64,000 bases of DNA from Escherichia coli (lineage in GTDB: Bacteria; Pseudomonadota; Gammaproteobacteria; Enterobacterales; Enterobacteriaceae), in the NCBI RefSeq assembly GCF_024223415.1, contig NZ_CP100500.1, one strand, 5' to 3'. Both the position numbers and the translations under genes were made by a program. Shown piece by piece: positions 1 through 54,663 of this stretch (within the stretch, counting starts at the first letter, position 1; each line of letters starts with the position of its first letter). Under the pieces are notes generated by a model, which made no database searches, was not told the DNA's origin, and saw only the letters and a program-made list of their open reading frames with translations.

Positions 1-35
1 TGAAGCGTATTCACACTTCAGATCAGTGGATTCGA

Positions 36-245
36 TCAGATAGCTGTTACGTTAACAGCTGCCGGACCTTTCTGGCCGTCCTGAATTTCGAACTCAACGT
101 TCTGACCTTCAGCCAGAGTTTTGAAGCCATTACCCTGGATAGCGGAGAAGTGTACGAACACGTCTTTGCTGCCATCAGCAGGAGTAATGAAGCCAAAACC
201 TTTAGACTCGTTGAACCACTTAACCTGACCTTTAATCTTTGCCAT
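36..245 (-). CDS. cspC: cold-shock-domain protein CspC
   Basis: 69-aa [36 protein letters not shown]..., CspA-family with RNP motifs; position next to yobF as in K-12. Confidence 0.93.
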
Positions 246-257
246 TTGAAAAATTCC

Positions 258-401
258 TTAGATTGTTTTCTTCGCCCGCAGGCATAACATAGATAAAACT
301 GACACATTACTGCATGAGGCACCAATATAAGGCTCGGCAGAGAAGCGGTATTCAACGTCAACGTGTTTACTCAGGACTTCTTTACTGAAAATGCCACACA
401 T
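258..401 (-). CDS. yobF: small protein YobF (47 aa)
   Basis: Manual translation of minus strand gives [47 protein letters not shown]; below the 60-aa cutoff of the ORF track. Confidence 0.85.
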
Positions 402-1072
402 AAACAGAACTGTACCTCGTTTAACCCGAAATCTGTTATCACATACAACGTTAATTATGGCAAGCCATTTTTAAACATGTCTCGATCAGACGCACAAATC
501 TCGATACGTCTTCCACTTTTTTTGCACACTTATGCAACGGAATACGCGCCGATATATCATTGTGCTTAACCTTGCCAGTTCCGGCAGATACTTAAACTGG
601 CGTAGTTTCTAACATAGTTCAATAAGTTCAGTTGTTCCAGGCCAGTGGGAGAAGTTATTACATAGTGCGTGCAATATCACATTTTCTGCTATGCAATGAA
701 TAAAAAGTTATATCACTTTTTCTCATAAAACAGTCAGTTAACGGCTATCAATTACCCTAAAGAGAAGTCAATCCCCAAAGGGATTGTAAATTTAAAATAA
801 GAAAAATTGATGAGTGAGCAAAAAAATCAAGAGAGAAACGTTTCGCTAATAAATAATACCACGCTTAATCACAAATCCGATGTAAACATCCTAATAAATT
901 ATAATGAGGAAAATATCTTTTTCTGATATCCCGTTACGCAAATAAATAATATGATAATTATTTGAAGTCAGACCAGAGTTTTAATTTGAAGCAGTTGCAC
1001 CATGACAGTGCGTATAATCAGGATGAATTGAGTAACCCTTCAACGACGGGGTTACTCAAGATTGAGGAAGGA

Positions 1073-15781: not shown

Positions 15782-15915
15782 CAATATTTTCCTCCCGCGC
15801 TAAAGATCACATAATCTTAACAAGAATGTTAAAAAATGCTGGACTCAGACAGTAGAGTGTGTGTTATGGTTGACTATAAAGTCAGCGAAGGAAATGCTTC
15901 TGGCTTTTAACAGAT

Positions 15916-16018
15916 AAAAAGAGACCGAACACGATTCCTGTATTCGGTCCAGGGAAATGGCTCTTGGGAGAGAGCCGTGCGCTAAAAGTTGGCATTAATG
16001 CAGGCTTAGTTGCCTTGC
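15916..16018 (-). ncRNA. sdsR: sRNA SdsR (RyeB)
   Basis: Minus-strand sequence GCAAGGCAACUAAGCCUGCAUUAAUGCC...CCGAAUACAGGAAUCGUGUUCGGUCUCUUUUU matches my recollection of SdsR, ending in a hairpin plus U-tract. Confidence 0.8.
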
Positions 16019-16105
16019 CCTTTAAGAATAGATGACGACGCCAGGTTTTCCAGTTTGCGTGCAAAATGGTCAATAAAAAGCGCGGTGGTCATCAGCTTAA
16101 ATGTT

Positions 16106-44557: not shown

Positions 44558-44806
44558 ATGCGTATTGAAATCTGTATCGCTAAAGAAAAATTCAGCAAAA
44601 TGCCAAAAGGCTCTGTACCTGCTCTACAACAGGAAATGTCTCGCCGTATCAGAAAACAATACGACGATGTGGAGGTTATAGTAAAATCCGCCAGTAATGA
44701 CGGACTGACCATTTTAAGAGCCGTAGATAAAGAAAACGCTCAGAAGTTCATACAGGAAACGCTGCAGGAAGTCTGGGAAACTGCTGATGACTGGTTTTTT
44801 CACTAA
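44558..44806 (+). CDS. DinI-family DNA-damage-inducible protein (prophage-encoded)
   Basis: 82-aa [22 protein letters not shown]...[16 protein letters not shown], resembling DinI incl. C-terminal acidic WExADDWF motif; good SD (AGAGGG). Confidence 0.8.
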
Positions 44807-44873: not shown

Positions 44874-44910
44874 AGGCGTGTTCACGCATACAACACGCCT
44901 TTCTGATATT
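44874..44910 (+). terminator. intrinsic terminator downstream of dinI-like gene
   Basis: AGGCGTGTT-cacgcatac-AACACGCCT followed by TTCTGATATTT. Confidence 0.55.
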
Positions 44911-44982: not shown

Positions 44983-45078
44983 CTATCCCAGAACAACCAG
45001 TACAAATAATAAAAGACATATCACAGCAACACTCCACACTGACAGCGCAAAAATAAATGCCGCCTTTGTTATCTTCAT
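44983..45078 (-). CDS. hypothetical 31-aa hydrophobic peptide (speculative)
   Basis: Manual translation: MKITKAAFIFALSVWSVAVICLLLFVLVVLG; single predicted TM helix; weak SD; lies in an AT-rich spacer. Confidence 0.2.
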   Translation of the reverse strand: MKITKAAFIFALSVWSVAVICLLLFVLVVLG

Positions 45079-45189: not shown

Positions 45190-45645
45190 TTATTCAACAC
45201 CTGAATCCCCCGCAGCTTCTCTCCCCTTTATAAAACGCCCCTTCCGGAATCCAGACCGCTGCAGTGCACGACGAAGATGACCGTATACCGTCTTGTCATT
45301 CTGCCCCGTCTCTTCTGTAATCTCCGCAATACTTAAACCTCTGTAATACCGGTTCAGTACCGCTCTGCGCTCTTCCAGCGTCAACACACCTCCGGCCGCT
45401 CTCAGATTCAGCATCGACTTATTCAGAATACAGCAGGCCTCTCCGGTAAAAAGAATACGAACAATATCTGTATACTCATCATCACAGAATACAAAATAAT
45501 ATCTGAATGACCTGCCTGACTGCACCCTTCTTCTGTCTGATATGGCATCTTCTATATATCTGATTCGACTGCTTACGGTTCCAAATATCTCTCGCAGGGC
45601 TTTTTCAAAATAAATATCTCTCGTCGCCAGGATTATATCCAGCAT
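45190..45645 (-). CDS. LuxR/GerE-type HTH transcriptional regulator (prophage accessory)
   Basis: 151-aa ORF; C-terminal LTLEERRAVLNRYYRGLSIAEITEETGQNDKTVYGHLRRALQR fits the GerE/LuxR HTH pattern; Arg codons almost all AGA/AGG/CGA and frequent ATA Ile. Confidence 0.6.
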   Translation of the reverse strand: MLDIILATRDIYFEKALREIFGTVSSRIRYIEDAISDRRRVQSGRSFRYYFVFCDDEYTDIVRILFTGEACCILNKSMLNLRAAGGVLTLEERRAVLNRYYRGLSIAEITEETGQNDKTVYGHLRRALQRSGFRKGRFIKGREAAGDSGVE

Positions 45646-45661
45646 CTCTGTACCTCATTAT

Positions 45662-45682
45662 ATCCCGGGGGACTCCCCCGGG
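45662..45682. other. GC-rich hairpin between eib-like gene and regulator
   Basis: TCCCGGGGG-ACT-CCCCCGGGA, 9-bp perfect stem, no U-tract. Confidence 0.5.
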
Positions 45683-45705
45683 ACAGATATCTAAATCCTG
45701 ACCTG

Positions 45706-46833
45706 TCAGAACTCAAAATTCACACCAGCATTCCACGATGCGGATGACCCACCTGCAGCAACTGCAACTTTTCCTGCCACATTCTCTGTGAAACGGTAGC
45801 CCACGCCCACCGCAATGGCCTGCTCATCACGGTAACCACCAACGGCTGCTGTCGCGTTAAATTTTCCAACACTGTATGGCTGGAAAAGACCGGCCAGTGC
45901 CGCGCTCTGGGCTGCACTCTCCCTTAACTCCTTCCGGTTCTCTTTAATCTGCTCCTGCATATTATTCATTCTCTCTGTCGCCATCTTCTGCCAGGCTTCC
46001 GTCAAATCCAGACGATGACTGTTATTCCTTATCGCTGCTGTATTTGAGGCTATTGCTGCATCCGTCTGCGCCCTGTTCTTCACAAGCACATCGCTGAGAT
46101 GTTCTGCCTGGCTTTTCACCTCGTTACGGACAGTACGCACACTGCTGTCTGTATATGTACGCGTCTCGTCCAGAACATCCGACTTCACCGCATCCGTGTA
46201 TTCCTGCGCAGAAGCCCTGGCAGCTGTAATATTACCGTTAAGTCTGTTTTCTGCCGATTCCACTCGACTCTTAGCATCAGCAACAGCATCACGGTAGACA
46301 GCTCCTATCTCACCGCGCAGGGCATCCCCCGACTCCCGTACAGCATCTGCAATGGCGTTGTCCATCTGTCCTTTTGTGGCCGCATCACTATCCTTAACAC
46401 CATCTGAAACATTTATAATCCGGCGGGTTTCCGGTGCACCATCAACTGAAAATCCATATCCTGAAGGACCGGCCCCTACAGAAAGTACATTGCTTTCTCC
46501 ATTCACCTGAGAGCCATACCCCAGAGCGACACTGTTGTCTGCATTAAAAACAGCTGTATTATTTCCCACAGCCATGGATTTATCCGCATCCCAAATTATT
46601 GCATCGGAACCAACAGCAAAGTTTTTTCCAGTAACACTACCATCACTGTTAAAATTTCCATTTCTGTCAACCACAGTTGCACTTTCAAGTGAATGAGTGC
46701 CATTATCAATCCAGATAATACCCGTCGATGACTCAGTAAGTGTTTTATGAGCCAAAGCCTGAGATGAGAGCAGCAGGGCCACACTCACTGCCAGCGCGCT
46801 TTTCTTTAAAAAAGCATCACGTCTTTTAAGCAT
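45706..46833 (-). CDS. trimeric autotransporter adhesin, Eib-like (E. coli immunoglobulin-binding protein family) candidate
   Basis: 375-aa product from MLKRRDAFLKKSALAVSVALLLSSQALA (signal peptide; SD AGGAG 9 nt upstream); coiled-coil stalk; C-terminal YadA-like anchor ...WNAGVNFEF; Eib genes are known prophage cargo; the ORF track extends 18 codons upstream. Confidence 0.7.
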   Translation of the reverse strand: MLKRRDAFLKKSALAVSVALLLSSQALAHKTLTESSTGIIWIDNGTHSLESATVVDRNGNFNSDGSVTGKNFAVGSDAIIWDADKSMAVGNNTAVFNADNSVALGYGSQVNGESNVLSVGAGPSGYGFSVDGAPETRRIINVSDGVKDSDAATKGQMDNAIADAVRESGDALRGEIGAVYRDAVADAKSRVESAENRLNGNITAARASAQEYTDAVKSDVLDETRTYTDSSVRTVRNEVKSQAEHLSDVLVKNRAQTDAAIASNTAAIRNNSHRLDLTEAWQKMATERMNNMQEQIKENRKELRESAAQSAALAGLFQPYSVGKFNATAAVGGYRDEQAIAVGVGYRFTENVAGKVAVAAGGSSASWNAGVNFEF

Positions 46834-47181
46834 TCTGTTATTCTCCTGTATTATTACTTCACCAGCCAGAACGGTAGTGCGGAGCAAAAATACAGTGATA
46901 AGAATCCTCTTTTATTAATTTAATAATATCAGGAATATTATTGTGTATAATATGCGCCCTCAATTTAAGCAGCAGAAAAGCAATGACGCGAAAATCATTA
47001 AAATACATAAAGATAAAACATCATAACTATAATTATAATAAGCGCGCTTATTTTAGCATCTGAACATTTAAAGTACTGCTATCACAAAACAATAAAAATC
47101 CTGGGTAATATCTCTGATGATTGAATGAGAAATTCACGATGTCTGGTGAGAATTCTGTTCAAAACGAGGAATGCAGACGTA

Positions 47182-47268
47182 CACGTGGCACGCACCACGT
47201 GATCCGTAGAAAAGCCTCTTGTTACGAATTTCGTAAACCGCACGTCTGTCTGGTCGTGCGGATTTTTT
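47182..47268 (+). other. three consecutive hairpins ending in an intrinsic terminator (candidate structured RNA 3' end)
   Basis: CACGTGG-cacgca-CCACGTG (47182-47201); perfect 15-bp palindrome TTACGAATTTCGTAA (47222-47236); CCGCACG-tctgtctggt-CGTGCGG + ATTTTTT (47238-47268). Confidence 0.45.
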
Positions 47269-47454
47269 ATCCGTCAACTTCACATGAAACCCGCCAGAGC
47301 ACTGTTTCCGGATTCAGACATCAGGCATATTATCATCCACAATATCGTGAACAAGATCACCTTTTTGCAATTCCTTTATTGATCGAAAGCAGTTAATCAC
47401 TGAAATTAATTACCGGAGTGAAAGCATTACTGCATAATAAATATAGATCCTTGC

Positions 47455-47488
47455 CCCCCTCTGACAGAATTTTCAGAGGGGTTTTTTT
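47455..47488 (+). terminator. strong plus-strand intrinsic terminator
   Basis: CCCCCTCTGA-cagaattt-TCAGAGGGGG followed by T7; plus-strand only. Confidence 0.65.
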
Positions 47489-47496
47489 TATCAGTT

Positions 47497-48072
47497 TCAC
47501 CATCCAACCCTGTACGCCAGAATGGTTTCACTGTCACTCAGTTCTGCTATTGCCTTTTTCATCTCCCTTTGCCTTATATGTATTTCAAGGCCTTTCCTGA
47601 ACATCGCTTTACCAGCAGCATCACTCAGGGATATCAGTTCATCTGCCGTCATCGGTACATCATTATTCTCTGCGTCCGTCCAGAAAAATCCTTCCGGCAA
47701 CACTCCGCCTCTGGCCGCTGATGCCGACATTCCAAGACGTGTCATGGCTTCCTTTCCATAATCCCATTTCCGTCCTCTGTGCTCAAAAACATACCCTGAC
47801 GCCTCCATCGCATCACGCCAGGCATTTATCTCCGCGTTTTTCATCCTGCGTGCTTCTTCCACAGCCATATCATCATTTGCCCGGTACTCACCTACCGGCC
47901 CTGCATCACCTCTTATGCAGGCTTCAAATATTTCACGACCGTAAGACTCAGGATCATCCGCACTTGCTGTAAATACACATTCTGTTTCCGCGTCTGAAAA
48001 CTTCACTATACAGTTTATGGTCGTATGACCCCTGTCAGCCCACACTGGTGACGTGATTTTATCGACCTTCAT
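47497..48072 (-). CDS. hypothetical phage protein at the tail-fibre-assembly (tfa) position
   Basis: 191-aa ORF immediately downstream of the stf-like gene with SD GGGGAGAAA; does not resemble lambda Tfa as far as I can recall; assignment is positional. Confidence 0.4.
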   Translation of the reverse strand: MKVDKITSPVWADRGHTTINCIVKFSDAETECVFTASADDPESYGREIFEACIRGDAGPVGEYRANDDMAVEEARRMKNAEINAWRDAMEASGYVFEHRGRKWDYGKEAMTRLGMSASAARGGVLPEGFFWTDAENNDVPMTADELISLSDAAGKAMFRKGLEIHIRQREMKKAIAELSDSETILAYRVGW

Positions 48073-48086
48073 TCATTTCTCCCCTG

Positions 48087-49892
48087 TCACCGTATTCTCT
48101 GAAACAGGCCCCAAATCGTCCCAATGATATTATTCACTGTCATGTTAGTTGTGCATAACATCCATGTACCAAGCATAGGATTGCCAAATAAAAAGCGGAT
48201 ATCTGTAAGTTTATCCGATGACGACGACACAATAACGGCCTGTCTGATACGATACCCGGGTATTTCACGGGTATTTGTTACCTCATGATTTCGTTCTATG
48301 ATCCCCAGAACATAAGACCCCACGGAATAAACACTTCCGACGCTCGCTGGCTGCCCCGGCTGTCCCTGTGGTCCTGCCGGGCCGCGTTCACCTGTATACC
48401 CTCTTGGCCCCTGAGGACCTGCCGGGCCGCGTTCACCTGTATCCCCCTTTAGTCCCTGTGGACCTGCCGGACCGCGTTCACCTGTATCGCCCTTTGGTCC
48501 CTGTGGACCACGCTCCCCCTGGGCTCCCAGCTCTTTCCATTCAGACCAGGGGCCATTACCGGTAAAATTACCAGTAACAGTTCTTACGAACTTTCGTGGT
48601 GGGTTCCAGGTTGTATATTCATGCTGGCAATATCCCCATGCACCAACTCTTACCTGAAGATAACCCGCTCTCTGAATCGGATAATTATTTTCTCGTGTAG
48701 CCCCACTGTCTGATGGCTGATAATAATCACCCTGATCGGTCACTCGTCCCAGTCGGTTCAGATCACCATTCAGCAGTTGTCCACGGGCTGACTCTCCTCT
48801 TGGTCCCTGAGGACCTGCCGGACCGCGTGCTCCTGTTTCACCTTTTGCTCCCTGTGGACCTGTCGGACCGCGTTCACCTGTTTCACCTTTTGGTCCCTGT
48901 GGTCCTGCCGGGCCGCGTTCACCTGTTTCACCCTTTGCTCCCTGTGGACCTTCCGGGCCACGTTCACCTGTATCCCCCTTTGGTCCCTGAGGACCTGCCG
49001 GGCCACGTTCACCTGTATCGCCCTTTGATCCCTGTGGACCTGCCGGGCCGCGTTCACCTGTATCCCCCTTTGGTCCCTGTGGACCTCCCGGATCTCCTTT
49101 ATCCCCCTTAGGGCCTTTTTCTCCTCGCTCACCCTTTTCTCCCTTCAGACCCTGAGGGCCTTCCGGACCACGTGCACCTGTTTCGCCCTTTGCTCCCTGT
49201 GGACCTGCCGGGCCGCGTTCACCTGTTTCGCCCTTTGCTCCCTGTGGACCTGCCGGGCCGCGTGCACCTGTTTCACCCTTTGGTCCCTGTGGACCTGCCG
49301 GGCCGCGTTCACCTGTATCGCCCTTTAGTCCCTGTGGACCTGCCGGACCGCGTTCACCTGTTTCACCTTTTGGTCCCTGTGGTCCTGCCGGGCCACGTGC
49401 TCCTGTTTCACCTTTTGGCCCCTGTGGCCCGGTAATGCCTCTTTCACCACGAGCGCCGGTATCCCCTTTCTCTCCTCGTGGTCCCCGGGCAGATGCTGCT
49501 CGTTTCCGGGCTTCCTCCGCCTCAGATGCCGCGGACTCTGCTCTGTGCAGTATGGACTGCACCACAGCCTCCAGCTCTGACAACGCCTTCGGATAATAAG
49601 GAGCATCTTCCAGCTCCATCAGAAATTTATTCAGTGTTCCCGGTGAAGAATCCTCCCTGACCACGATATCTCCCACATACGAAGGACGGTAACCTTCTGT
49701 ATTGAGTGTCACCCTGTATATTCCTGGCTCCACATCCATACTGTAACTCCCCGTCTCTTCCGGCATGCCATAAGCCACTGTCGTGGCGATGACTGTCTCG
49801 CTGGTTCTCTTCGCTTTCAGCTCAATAATGCATCCCGGTACCGGTTTTCCGGTTCCGTCCCTCAGCACGCCTGAAATTTTTACAGCCGCCAT
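48087..49892 (-). CDS. stf: side tail fibre protein (Stf-like) with collagen-like G-X-Y repeats
   Basis: 601-aa ORF; N-terminus [18 protein letters not shown]... resembles lambda Stf N-domain; two long blocks of GPxGxKGxTGxRG repeats; distinct C-terminal domain. Confidence 0.8.
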
Positions 49893-50894: not shown

Positions 50895-51154
50895 CAGATC
50901 CCCCTTATCATGACCAGCACGGGTCTTAACCAGCTTGTGTTGGCATAGTGCACTGTCCAGCCGGATACACTGGCACTGGTATGACTTCCCTGACCGTTAA
51001 TCAGAATGGCCGGTGAACAGACTTCCAGACGCCAGCCCTGCAAAGGAGTATAAGAACGCTGCCCCGTCCCTTCAGTGATCACATCCAGCACCCCTGTTGG
51101 GTTTATTTCATGTGTCACAAGGCGCCCTTTGCGCCATACCCGGACTCCGAACAT
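50894..51154 (-). CDS. hypothetical small protein coupled to J
   Basis: 86-aa ORF; start overlaps J stop (TAATG). Confidence 0.5.
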   Translation of the reverse strand: MFGVRVWRKGRLVTHEINPTGVLDVITEGTGQRSYTPLQGWRLEVCSPAILINGQGSHTSASVSGWTVHYANTSWLRPVLVMIRGI

Positions 51155-54100
51155 TACAGTCTCCCCAGTCGTACTCTTAACACATTGTTATCGTCATATA
51201 CGTCGATTCGCTCGCCATTGAAAAACAGGCGGCCTGCGCCGGGCCTTCCTGAGTTAATTTCAAGGCTGCCGTTTCTTGATAAACGCCACCCCGGACTACC
51301 GGAATGAAAATTATCTGACCGGATATCTCCCGTCACTCTGGCAAAATCCACGGTCAGTTTTTTCATGAAAACATCATTCATGAACAGCTGATCACCCTGA
51401 GCCACAAACAAAGGTGTTGTATTGCCATTTTCCGGGTTAATCATCGCAATACGATCTGCCTGCATCAGGATCTGACTCTGAATTCCGTCAGACGTATTTT
51501 CGATTCCGGCACCAATACCTGCAATATAGAGACGTCCATCCCGTGTCTGCTGCAGCTTCACAGCCCACATGCTGTTCAGGTTCCGGCGCGTGTCCTCCTG
51601 AACTTTCTGTATCTGCTCAATGCTGGCATTCCAGGATCCCAGTTTTTTATCCGTGCTCTGTGTGATCTGACTTCCCTTATCATCAACATACTGTCTGATC
51701 TGCGCTATCTGTCGGCTGTTCTCCTCCGTGCTCCTGCTTACTGTCTGCCGGATTTCGCTTCCCATCCTGTCAACTTTTCTGTCAACTTCCGCAATGGCCA
51801 TTGACTGTTCAGCGCTCTTTTTCGCCACAACAGTACTTATTTGCGCACTTTTATCATCAACATACTGCCTGACCTGCGCTATCTGTCGGCTGTTCTCCTC
51901 CGTGCTCCTGCTCACTGTCTGCCGGATTTCACTGCTCACGCTGTCAACTTTCCTGTCGACTTTCGCAATGGCCAGCGACTGTTCACCGCTCTTTTTCGCC
52001 ACCAGTTCCGTTATGCTGTTTTCAGACGCCGTGATTTTTTTCGTCACCTCTGCGATATCACGCTCCGCACGCTGCCTCACATCTTTCTCCAGCTGCGTCA
52101 TTTCGCGGTTAATCGCATTCTCCAGTTGCTCAACTTCAGTGCGCCGTGCAGAGGCATCAATGCGTTCATTGATCTCCCGTCCCAGATGCGTTTTATTTAT
52201 CGCCCCCCTGAAAAAATTAAGGTAACCGGCAGGATCATTACTCGCCCGACCGACTGCCTCCACGAATGCCGATTTACCGACAGTGTTAACACTGCGGATA
52301 TAAAAGTAATAATCATGGCCAGGTTTAATATTCTGGCCGGAGACAAGCCACTGACTTCCGGTACCAAGATAACGGGCTGTGGTTTCAACCTGCCTGATAT
52401 CGGTAATCCGCGTTTCCGAGAACCAGAACTCAAACTGTACCGTCGGATCGTAAACCGCAAGATGCGGCGTGGCGGTTATCTGAAAATAGCCCGGCGTCAG
52501 CTCAATCCGCGACGGCGCTGCCGGTGCGGCAATCCGGAACGATACCGACGCCGGGTCTCCCTGCTGCCCCCGGGCATTTACTGCCCGGACTGTCAGCCTG
52601 TAGTTCCCCGGCGCCAGCTGCCTGAAGCGGTATGTGGTTTCCGTCGTCCGGGCCGTGCTGACCAGCCGCTCACTGCCATCATCCGCGGCCACGGTCAGGC
52701 GAAGCAGGAAGCTCACGCCCTTCACCACCTTCGGCGTGTCCCAGCGCGCCAGCACCTGATATTCCCCGCTGTCTGCGGTGACTTCTGCGGTCAGGTGCTG
52801 CACCGCTGGCGGCGTGACACCATTCACCGTTCCGCTCTGGTCGCCGTCAAAGTGCGCCCCGTTATCCACGATGGCCTCTTTTTCCGGTACATGCTGCACG
52901 GCAGTGATGGCATACGTGCCGTCGTCGTTCTCACGGATACTCACGCAGCGGAACAGGCGCTGGCGCAGCGTCGGCAGCTTCAGCCCCCACACGCTGTACT
53001 CGGCAACGCCGTCAGGAACCCGGCTCACTTTTACCTTCACGCCGTCGGTGACGGACTGAACCTCCACGCTGACCGGATTGCCACTTCCGTCAACCAGACT
53101 TATCAGCGTGGTACCGGAGGATGGCAGCGTGATTTCACGGTCGAGCGTCAGCGTCCGGGTCTGGCTGTTCACCGCCAGCACACGACCACCGGTGCTGATA
53201 CCGGCATAGTCATCATCACAGATTTCAATGACATCGCCCGGTACATGGCGAAGCCCTTCAGCACCCACGCTGAAATCCACGGTCTGCGTCTCCAGCAGTT
53301 CTGTTTTAATCAGCCACAGCCCGGCGCGGTGTGCCTGCCCCCGGCTGGTACAGCCAAAGGCATCCATCTTCGTGACGTTACGACCGTAACGGGCAATGGC
53401 CTGCGTGTCCTCCACAAGCTCTGTCGCCGTCTCCTGGCCGTTATCCGGGTCACTCCAGTTCACCTCAACGGCATTATGGCGGTCCTTCAGGGCGCTGAAG
53501 CTGTAGCGGAACGGCGCGCCATCATCCGGCATCACCACATTACTGCGGTTATAGGTCCACACCTTATCCGACGGTCGGTCCTGCACGAACGTCAGCGTCT
53601 GCCCGTTCCATACCGGCATACAGCGCATCGCCGAGCAGAAATCACTGAGCACATCCCACGCCTTACGCTGCCTGGTCAGCCAGGCATTACAGGTGATGCG
53701 CGGCTCCGTGCCACCAGAGCCGTCCGGCACCGACTGGTCGCAGTACTGGCCGATGACATACAGCGCCCATTTGTCCACATCCGCTGCGCCAACACGTTTC
53801 CCCATGCCGTAGCGCGGGTGGGTCAGCATATCCCACAGACACCAGGCCGGGTTATCGCTGTATGCCGGTTTAAACGTTCCGTCCCAGATACCGCTGTATT
53901 GCCGCGTCTGCGGGTTATAGTTCGACGGCACCTGCAGAATGCGCCCGCGAAGATGATAATTACGGCTCACCTGCTGGCTGCCGAACTGCTCCGAATCCAC
54001 CTGCACACCGACCAGTGCCGTGTTCGGGTAGCACTGTTTCACATCGATGATTTCGGTGTATGACGACCAGAGCGTTTTGTTCTGCAGCTGGTCTGTGGTG

Positions 54101-54663
54101 CTGTCCGGCGTCATCCTGCGCATCCGGATACTGAACGGGCGCGGCGGCAGGTTACCCACCACCACCGGGGCCAGATACTGCGAGGTGGTTTTGCCCTTAA
54201 TGGTGATGTCTTTTTCCGTTAACCAGCGACCGTTACGCTGTATCTGAACCAGCAGGCGGACTTCCGACGGATTCCGGTCCCCCTTTGAGGTGGTTTCCAC
54301 CAGTGCCTGCACACCGAAGGTCAGGCGCAGACGGTCGATGTTTGCCGACGTGATGGTCCGGGTAATCGGCGTGTCGTACTTCACTTCCGTACCCAGCACC
54401 GTCTCGGAGCCGGAGGATTCAAATCCCTCCGGCGGCGTCTGCTCCTGCTCACCGGCCCGGAATACCACCGTGACGCCGGATATATTGGTATTCCCCTCAC
54501 TGTCCAGCACCGGCGTACCGTTCAGCAGCACGCTTTTTAATCCATCCACCGGTCCTTGTATCGGCCCTTCGCTGATGACATCGATCACACTCAGCAACTG
54601 CGTGGACTTCAGGTTGTCCTTCGCTTCGCGCGGGGTATGCCCCTTACTGCTGCCTTTACCCAT
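51154..54663 (-). CDS. J: tail tip / host specificity protein J (central fibre), variant C-terminus
   Basis: 1169-aa ORF; N-terminal ~900 aa match lambda gpJ as I recall it ([24 protein letters not shown]...); C-terminal ~270 aa differ and include two 58-aa tandem repeats. Confidence 0.92.
51678..52025. repeat. 174-bp tandem duplication inside J
   Basis: Two adjacent ~174-bp copies (starting 51678 and 51852), ~90% identical, encoding [20 protein letters not shown]... Confidence 0.8.

Follow-up and report, generated by a model that had tools for sequence, protein, structure and literature searches.

What is the function of the perfect G/C-rich palindrome that occupies the short gap between a prophage adhesin gene and the regulator gene behind it? 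The question is raised by a 64-kb window of Escherichia coli DNA (the whole stretch of 64,000 nucleotides that was analysed), which holds aspS, a yecD-like gene and then the right arm of a lambdoid prophage (Table 1). The late-operon arm lies on the minus strand throughout and runs from a tape-measure-size gene through J, the tail fibre gene (with long collagen-like Gly-X-Y repeat blocks) and tfa to the adhesin and the regulator, which by gene order are the last module of this arm. The first-pass annotation had described the two flanking genes as an adhesin and a regulator, and domain searches bear this out. The adhesin, whose mechanical open reading frame extends to a TTG at 46887, contains YadA anchor, stalk and head domains. 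Its identification with a solved Eib structure was rejected, as only the YadA anchor matched; however, RefSeq relatives share the gene order and one of their adhesins is labelled 'immunoglobulin-binding protein', and the protein is thus of Eib type by context. The 151-residue regulator carries a helix-turn-helix (HTH) of the Sigma70_r4_2 type (PF08281) behind a receiver-like α/β N-terminal domain. Its AF2 model (pLDDT 80.5) has RcsB, StyR, FixJ and DesR as best PDB folds (E ~1e-3), and its RefSeq relatives are annotated as 'sigma factor-like helix-turn-helix DNA-binding protein'. A relationship with GadE was discarded at a profile comparison probability of 2.4%, with an approximate GadE sequence as the query.

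Table 1. Features of the adhesin-regulator module and its surroundings, IS421 insertions into the hairpin, and hairpins of sister lineages. Coordinates are those of the window or, where a handle (L) precedes them, of the locus named.
Feature	Coordinates	Strand	Basis or details
J tail gene	51154..54663	-	
Collagen-repeat tail fibre gene	48087..49892	-	Pfam Collagen, 6 stretches, E = 1.5e-48
DUF4376 tail-fibre assembly gene (tfa)	47497..48072	-	
Hairpin between tfa and adhesin	47456..47481	+	T8 run on + strand; sense strand has A8 and stem without U-tract
YadA-like (Eib-type context) trimeric autotransporter adhesin gene, 375 aa	45706..46833	-	domain matches; ATG at 46833 after AGGAG
Upstream 12-bp hairpin, weaker, across adhesin stop codon	45690..45717	-	-10.4 kcal/mol, z = -3.4
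Extended 11-bp stem, sense transcript only (added G.U and U:A pairs)	45661..45685	-	fold energies
Core G/C palindrome TCCCGGGGGA-N-TCCCCCGGGA	45663..45683	-	unique in window, 0 expected; fold
TATAAT hexamer directly 3' of stem	45657..45662	-	read from sequence
GAGG Shine-Dalgarno, 7 nt 5' of regulator ATG	45653..45656	-	read from sequence
Regulator gene, 151 aa, receiver-like α/β N-domain and sigma-70 region 4 / LuxR-type HTH	45190..45645	-	PF08281, 30.9 bits
9-bp hairpin AGGCGTGTT...AACACGCCT between convergent regulator (-) and DinI-like (+) genes	44874..44900	.	read from sequence
DinI-like gene, convergent	44558..44806	+	
IS421 insertions in hairpin	L002 3560..4935; L018 2400..3790; L019 850..2215; L017 2179..2215; L029 1270..1375; L030 1..70		
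Sister hairpin, L007			stem GGCAGGC...GCCUGCC; tail U6
Sister hairpin, L020			stem as in L007; tail U6
Sister hairpin, L031			stem CGGCAGG...CCUGCCG; tail U8
Sister hairpin, L033			stem GGCAGACAG...CUGUCUGCC; tail U5
Sister hairpin, L008/L009			stem GGGCAGCG...CGCUGCC; tail UGCUUUUC (UUUU within)
Sister hairpin, L026/L027			tail UUUCCU, partial

The gap between the two genes measures exactly 60 nt (45646..45705), from the adhesin TGA at 45708..45706 to the regulator ATG that begins at 45645. Read along the transcribed strand, the TGA is followed by 23 nt, the sequence UCCCGGGGG-AGU-CCCCCGGGA, UAUAAU, GAGG, 7 nt and the AUG. The DNA element is a perfect 21-nt palindrome, TCCCGGGGGACTCCCCCGGGA on the + strand, with 10-nt arms around one central base. 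In the sense RNA it becomes a 9-bp stem of G/C pairs plus U:A, closed by a 3-nt loop, just as the first-pass annotation had proposed. The sense strand adds two further pairs and folds at -21.9 kcal/mol (z = -3.7), against -19.3 kcal/mol for the antisense RNA, which forms the 9-bp stem only. The weaker stem across the adhesin stop codon contains four G.U pairs and therefore forms in sense RNA only, so that both stems favour the sense strand; no obvious conservation of this second stem was seen in the sister lineages described below. The palindrome is also rare. Its pattern has no second match in the window with up to three mismatches and arose in 0 of 100 shuffles, and in the stability of its local fold it ranks second among the 127,940 31-nt windows of both strands. 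Only 11 of these windows (8.6e-5) fold equally well or better, and a REP-like hairpin at 31907..31937 is the one locus that exceeds it. Downstream, the Shine-Dalgarno (SD) sequence of the regulator lies 5 nt past the extended stem, and both the SD and the regulator ATG are unpaired in the dominant fold. Sequestration of the SD was considered and rejected, since the predicted 5-bp pairing of a UAUCU with the SD region gains about 0.7 kcal/mol and is too weak. In another genome the gap carries an IS5-type insertion, whose junction, placed from match coordinates alone, lies near CTAA at ~45694.

Such a hairpin has part of what makes an intrinsic terminator: the nascent sense RNA is predicted to fold into a stable stem-loop rich in G/C, and on the coding strand this stem-loop follows a stop codon. 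The U-tract, which would require about five or more U among the first 8 nt past the stem, is missing, as the earlier annotation had noted; the tail, UAUAAUGA, has three U in eight positions, and the hairpin is not called by a terminator scan that does call hairpins of sister modules. E. coli RNA polymerase normally requires the U-tract, and intrinsic termination in this species is well established to depend strongly on it.

The sister modules are most informative in this respect. Searches for distant homologues of the regulator with the single sequence returned only near-identical E. coli proteins, and a profile search was required to recover its family, which comprises 74 clusters at E <= 1e-3. 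The family is almost restricted to E. coli (with one Citrobacter and one Salmonella entry), and its members share 18–29% identity with the window regulator in two alignments (A1, A3). In seven diverged lineages a family member lies directly behind a YadA-anchor gene, while other members have no called adhesin gene upstream (L022–L025, L032). All seven of these lineages have a hairpin 25–40 nt past the stop codon and 18–37 nt ahead of the next ATG. Six of the seven hairpins carry U-rich tails and are read as canonical intrinsic terminators, and the distance from sister terminator to regulator ATG is 25–37 nt. A consensus scan calls sense-strand terminators in L007, L020 and L031, and the predicted folds of L007 (-20.4 kcal/mol) and L020 (-16.7 kcal/mol) compare with -21.9 kcal/mol in the window. 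The sister hairpins are unrelated in sequence to the window palindrome. Two of these loci contain an open reading frame for a 68-residue hypothetical protein between the terminator-like hairpin and the regulator homologue (L008 2104..2500, L009 2019..2416), and in both the terminator hairpin is nested within a larger predicted stem.

The scan predicts no sigma-70-like promoter from the adhesin start up to the regulator, either in the window or in the three sister loci to which it was applied (L007, L020 and L031); in these three, neither the final 300–450 nt of the adhesin gene nor the gap contains a promoter-like call. Because no promoters are predicted before the regulators, these must be reached by transcription across the hairpin, and the family design would thus place a terminator between adhesin and regulator and leave the regulator accessible only to transcription that gets past the hairpin. 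The window lineage has in the same slot a more stable stem that lacks a U-tract. Terminators at the equivalent sister position, together with the missing promoter-like site, make a terminator-equivalent intercistronic RNA hairpin the best reading of the palindrome: a leaky terminator or pause site, a stabiliser of the adhesin mRNA, or both (probability roughly 0.55). Two proposals were made when the element was first noticed. The comparative evidence best fits the one in which a partial terminator or an element of RNA stability determines the ratio of adhesin to regulator; that of a separator of two independent promoters receives no support, for the reasons given below. One point against a terminator or stabiliser is that a defining feature of intrinsic terminators is absent. 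In addition, the promoter scan detects only near-consensus sigma-70 sites, which leaves room for a weak or activator-dependent promoter at the TATAAT, and the palindrome is equally a feature of the DNA, as which it is recognised by the insertion sequence IS421.

A stronger version of this reading would hold that the hairpin is an efficient terminator even without a U-tract, acting with NusA/NusG or by virtue of an A/U-rich UAUAAU hybrid. The adhesin mRNA would then be monocistronic, and the regulator would stay silent without antitermination. The stem is indeed very stable, its position is equivalent to that of the true sister terminators, and the first six tail bases are all A or U and would form a weak RNA:DNA hybrid. 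However, the tail has few U for an enzyme that depends on them, and the regulator is present as an intact reading frame with a good SD in about 166 genomes, which argues for its expression. Efficient termination at this site is thus quite improbable.

These genomes come from a survey of complete E. coli genomes, of which 183 of 5426 carry the block of adhesin anchor, hairpin and regulator at >=99% identity, in 315 copies and with up to eight copies per genome; APEC IMT5155, BEN2908 and TUM1886 are among the carrier strains. Prophages at yecD and yfhH harbour the block, as does a non-phage island flanked by PTS and transketolase genes. Neither the cassette DNA nor the regulator protein has a match in 50,697 phage genomes, and a single IMG/VR contig contains the cassette. 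The perfect palindrome of the window (5 G and 5 C, 45667..45679) is rare and occurs in only 4 of these 183 genomes. The remaining 179 carry the common allele, which has six G's on the sense strand, UCCCGGGGGG-AGU-CCCCCGGGA, and is therefore asymmetric (6 G against 5 C). Strain E41 has an A in place of the sixth G, and strain VTB97585v a base substitution beside the loop. The differences between alleles are confined to loop-proximal bases, and every allele folds at -21.8 to -23.9 kcal/mol. In 17 of the 183 genomes the gap is matched only partially.

The TATAAT that follows the stem on the minus strand, pointed out at first reading, is present and perfectly matches the -10 hexamer. Its best -35 candidates 17–18 nt upstream, TGTCCC and CTGTCC, agree at two to three of six positions, the gap sequence contains no TG extension upstream of it, and the promoter scan does not call the site. 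Transcription starting ~7 nt past the hexamer would yield a leader of 4–6 nt that lacks the GAGG, and the hexamer is missing from the sister adhesin-regulator gaps. The absence of a usable -35, the loss of the SD from such a transcript and the absence of the hexamer in the sisters leave the idea of two independent promoters unsupported, and the TATAAT is probably not a working -10 element. A related possibility is that the palindrome serves as a DNA operator or promoter part, where a protein dimer, perhaps of the HTH regulator encoded downstream, would bind at about -33 to -13 of a TATAAT promoter and control independent transcription of the regulator. A perfect palindrome abutting a perfect TATAAT would suit this arrangement, and the HTH gene next to it encodes a protein with a predicted FixJ/NarL-like fold, whose class is one of dimers that bind inverted repeats. 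Against it stand the poor promoter and also the allele distribution, because in 179 of 183 genomes the site is asymmetric, with the half-site spacing shifted by 1 bp, which is harmless to the loop of a hairpin but not to a dimer site. Moreover, no further half-sites beyond chance expectation occur in the adhesin upstream region or nearby, the sister gaps hold terminators and neither TATAAT nor palindrome, and the half-site consists entirely of G and C, unlike the known boxes of FixJ/NarL-type proteins. A role as operator is therefore very doubtful.

The palindrome does have a property at the DNA level that can be demonstrated, namely that it attracts insertion sequences. In strain E41, IS421 (IS4 family, IS186-like) lies exactly inside the hairpin between duplicated copies of GGGGACTTCCCC. 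The same point is hit in A3176, where the element has the opposite orientation, in VTB97585v, which has a different target allele, in VTB97420v, where one end is left, and in two draft assemblies; a third draft contig breaks within the hairpin loop. At least six sequenced E. coli genomes thus carry IS421 in the hairpin, in both orientations and in three target alleles, and from orientation and target allele combined at least four independent events can be counted. The duplicated GGGGACT(T)CCCC(C) abuts the IS421 ends at three loci (L002, L018 and L019), and single junctions are seen at three others (L017, L029 and L030). The IS186 target published by Lee et al. (2016; PMC5009759) is 5'-GGGG(N6/N7)CCCC-3'; of the 59 sites characterised there, 1 had a 5-bp core. 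Exact N6 targets are present in the common allele (GGGG-GACTCC-CCCC) and in that of E41 (GGGG-GACTTC-CCCC), and the IS421 copies inside the hairpin are bordered by G/C-rich target duplications. The window allele itself (GGGG-GACTC-CCCC) falls outside the N6/N7 motif, as the loss of one G leaves it with a core of the disfavoured 5 nt instead of 6 nt. Being an IS target is a liability of the DNA and does not explain why the hairpin is there.

The IS421 data are, nonetheless, part of the case for a palindrome that has no regulatory role at all, neutral or decayed (e.g., a former terminator that has lost its U-tract) and noticeable for its G/C richness, with the attraction of IS421/IS186 as its demonstrable property. 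Insertions that split the hairpin persist in several strains in which the regulator reading frame is intact. Since all cassette copies are >=99% identical, they show no covariation and give no power to detect selection within the lineage. Palindromes of the form TCCCGGGGG-N3-5-CCCCCGGGA occur in 7 of 2.9 million viral contigs, one of which is the same cassette and six of which have unrelated flanks; this pattern indicates independent origins, and it led to the rejection of a mobile palindrome. Yet a strong hairpin is kept at the same position in seven diverged lineages despite unrelated sequence, and the stem is never disrupted by natural alleles. We thus consider the absence of any role unlikely.

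Among the known systems closest to the window hairpin are intrinsic terminators, including those of its sisters (L007, L020, L031 and L033), with which it shares a G/C-rich sense stem-loop of comparable stability ~25 nt past the stop codon, in the same slot. It differs from them in its tail (UAUAAUGA against U5–U8) and in its stem, which is unrelated to GGCAGGC...GCCTGCC. Intercistronic hairpins are also known as mRNA stabilisers that produce differential expression within operons, as the REP sequence between malE and malF and the hairpins of the pap and puf operons. The window has in common with these a stable stem-loop that lacks a U-tract between genes of the same strand, and the mechanism proposed here is the same. 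In those operons a highly expressed structural gene precedes a gene of low abundance, an arrangement that the window would match by analogy, if the proposal is right. The palindrome is not itself a REP/BIME element, as it is present in one copy in 64 kb (up to three mismatches) and has neither a REP consensus nor an Rfam match; where a genome has several copies of it, they lie within copies of the same cassette only. Rfam 15 returns nothing over the gap at E values up to 10, and window-wide, at the gathering threshold, it finds only SraC/RyeA with its antisense SdsR/RyeB (15912..16056) and a cspA-type thermoregulator leader (1..421, minus strand), all outside the gap.

The phage term 'moron' denotes an accessory gene that sits within a late operon and has a promoter and a terminator to itself. 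The adhesin is likewise an accessory gene past the tail-fibre genes, with a long AT-rich upstream region and a hairpin after it, although here the module continues past the hairpin with the regulator as a second gene. A 660-nt AT-rich spacer separates tfa from the adhesin. The ~600 nt upstream of the adhesin (46834..47450, minus strand) are very AT-rich, with weak promoter-like calls only (47064..47035 and 47467..47440), and look like a silenced, horizontally acquired promoter region. The hairpin in this spacer, with its T8 run on the plus strand, reads as a terminator for antisense transcription only, toward the tail genes. At the other end of the module, the regulator and the convergent DinI-like gene are separated by a hairpin that probably ends the regulator transcript and is possibly a shared or bidirectional transcript end; the terminator scan makes no call there. 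Also 3' of the regulator, a 31-codon open reading frame (44983..45078, minus strand) that lacks a clear SD encodes the hydrophobic peptide MKITKAAFIFALSVWSVAVICLLLFVLVVLG and may represent a small membrane protein or nothing.

The hairpin is thus a real and well-defined element of an ordinary kind, and the preferred reading of it as terminator-equivalent would work as follows. Adhesin and regulator would be co-transcribed as a two-gene unit, in which the palindrome would act as a stem-loop of the sense (minus-strand) transcript in the slot of the sister terminators. Lacking a U-tract, it would release RNA polymerase poorly and so behave as a leaky terminator or a pause site. It would also block 3'-exonucleases, protecting the adhesin mRNA and allowing it to accumulate. 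The regulator would be made from the read-through fraction, using its own SD past the stem, and the expected outcome would be much adhesin message and little regulator message. A more elaborate scheme adds an antitermination gate, formed by the hairpin here and by the true terminators in the sister modules, in which the regulator would be made only when Q-modified late transcription crosses J, stf, tfa and the adhesin after prophage induction, while in the lysogen transcripts from the adhesin's own promoter would stop or be trimmed at the hairpin. By analogy with lambda sib/tI retroregulation, the outcome at the hairpin could differ between antiterminated and unmodified polymerase; the hairpin, however, offers no long duplex of the RNase III type, its stem being of 11 bp. 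The gate scheme as a whole is highly improbable. If it were true, a host-directed regulator would be tied to the lytic switch, and IS421 in the hairpin would permanently uncouple the regulator.

Prophage-borne Eib-like trimeric autotransporters are associated, in pathogenic E. coli, with the binding of immunoglobulins, with a chain-like pattern of adherence and with resistance to serum. Open-access papers on Eib proteins make no reference to the gap, to its hairpin or to the regulator. The repeated hits by IS421 show the highly specific IS186 target motif in use in natural strains other than K-12 and illustrate the mutational cost of strong G/C hairpins. If the reading proposed here is right, the hairpin would set the amount of regulator relative to that of the surface adhesin. 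The rule of adhesin, terminator and regulator seen across the family, with the terminator placed ~30 nt before the ATG, is a testable design principle for the wiring of such accessory modules.
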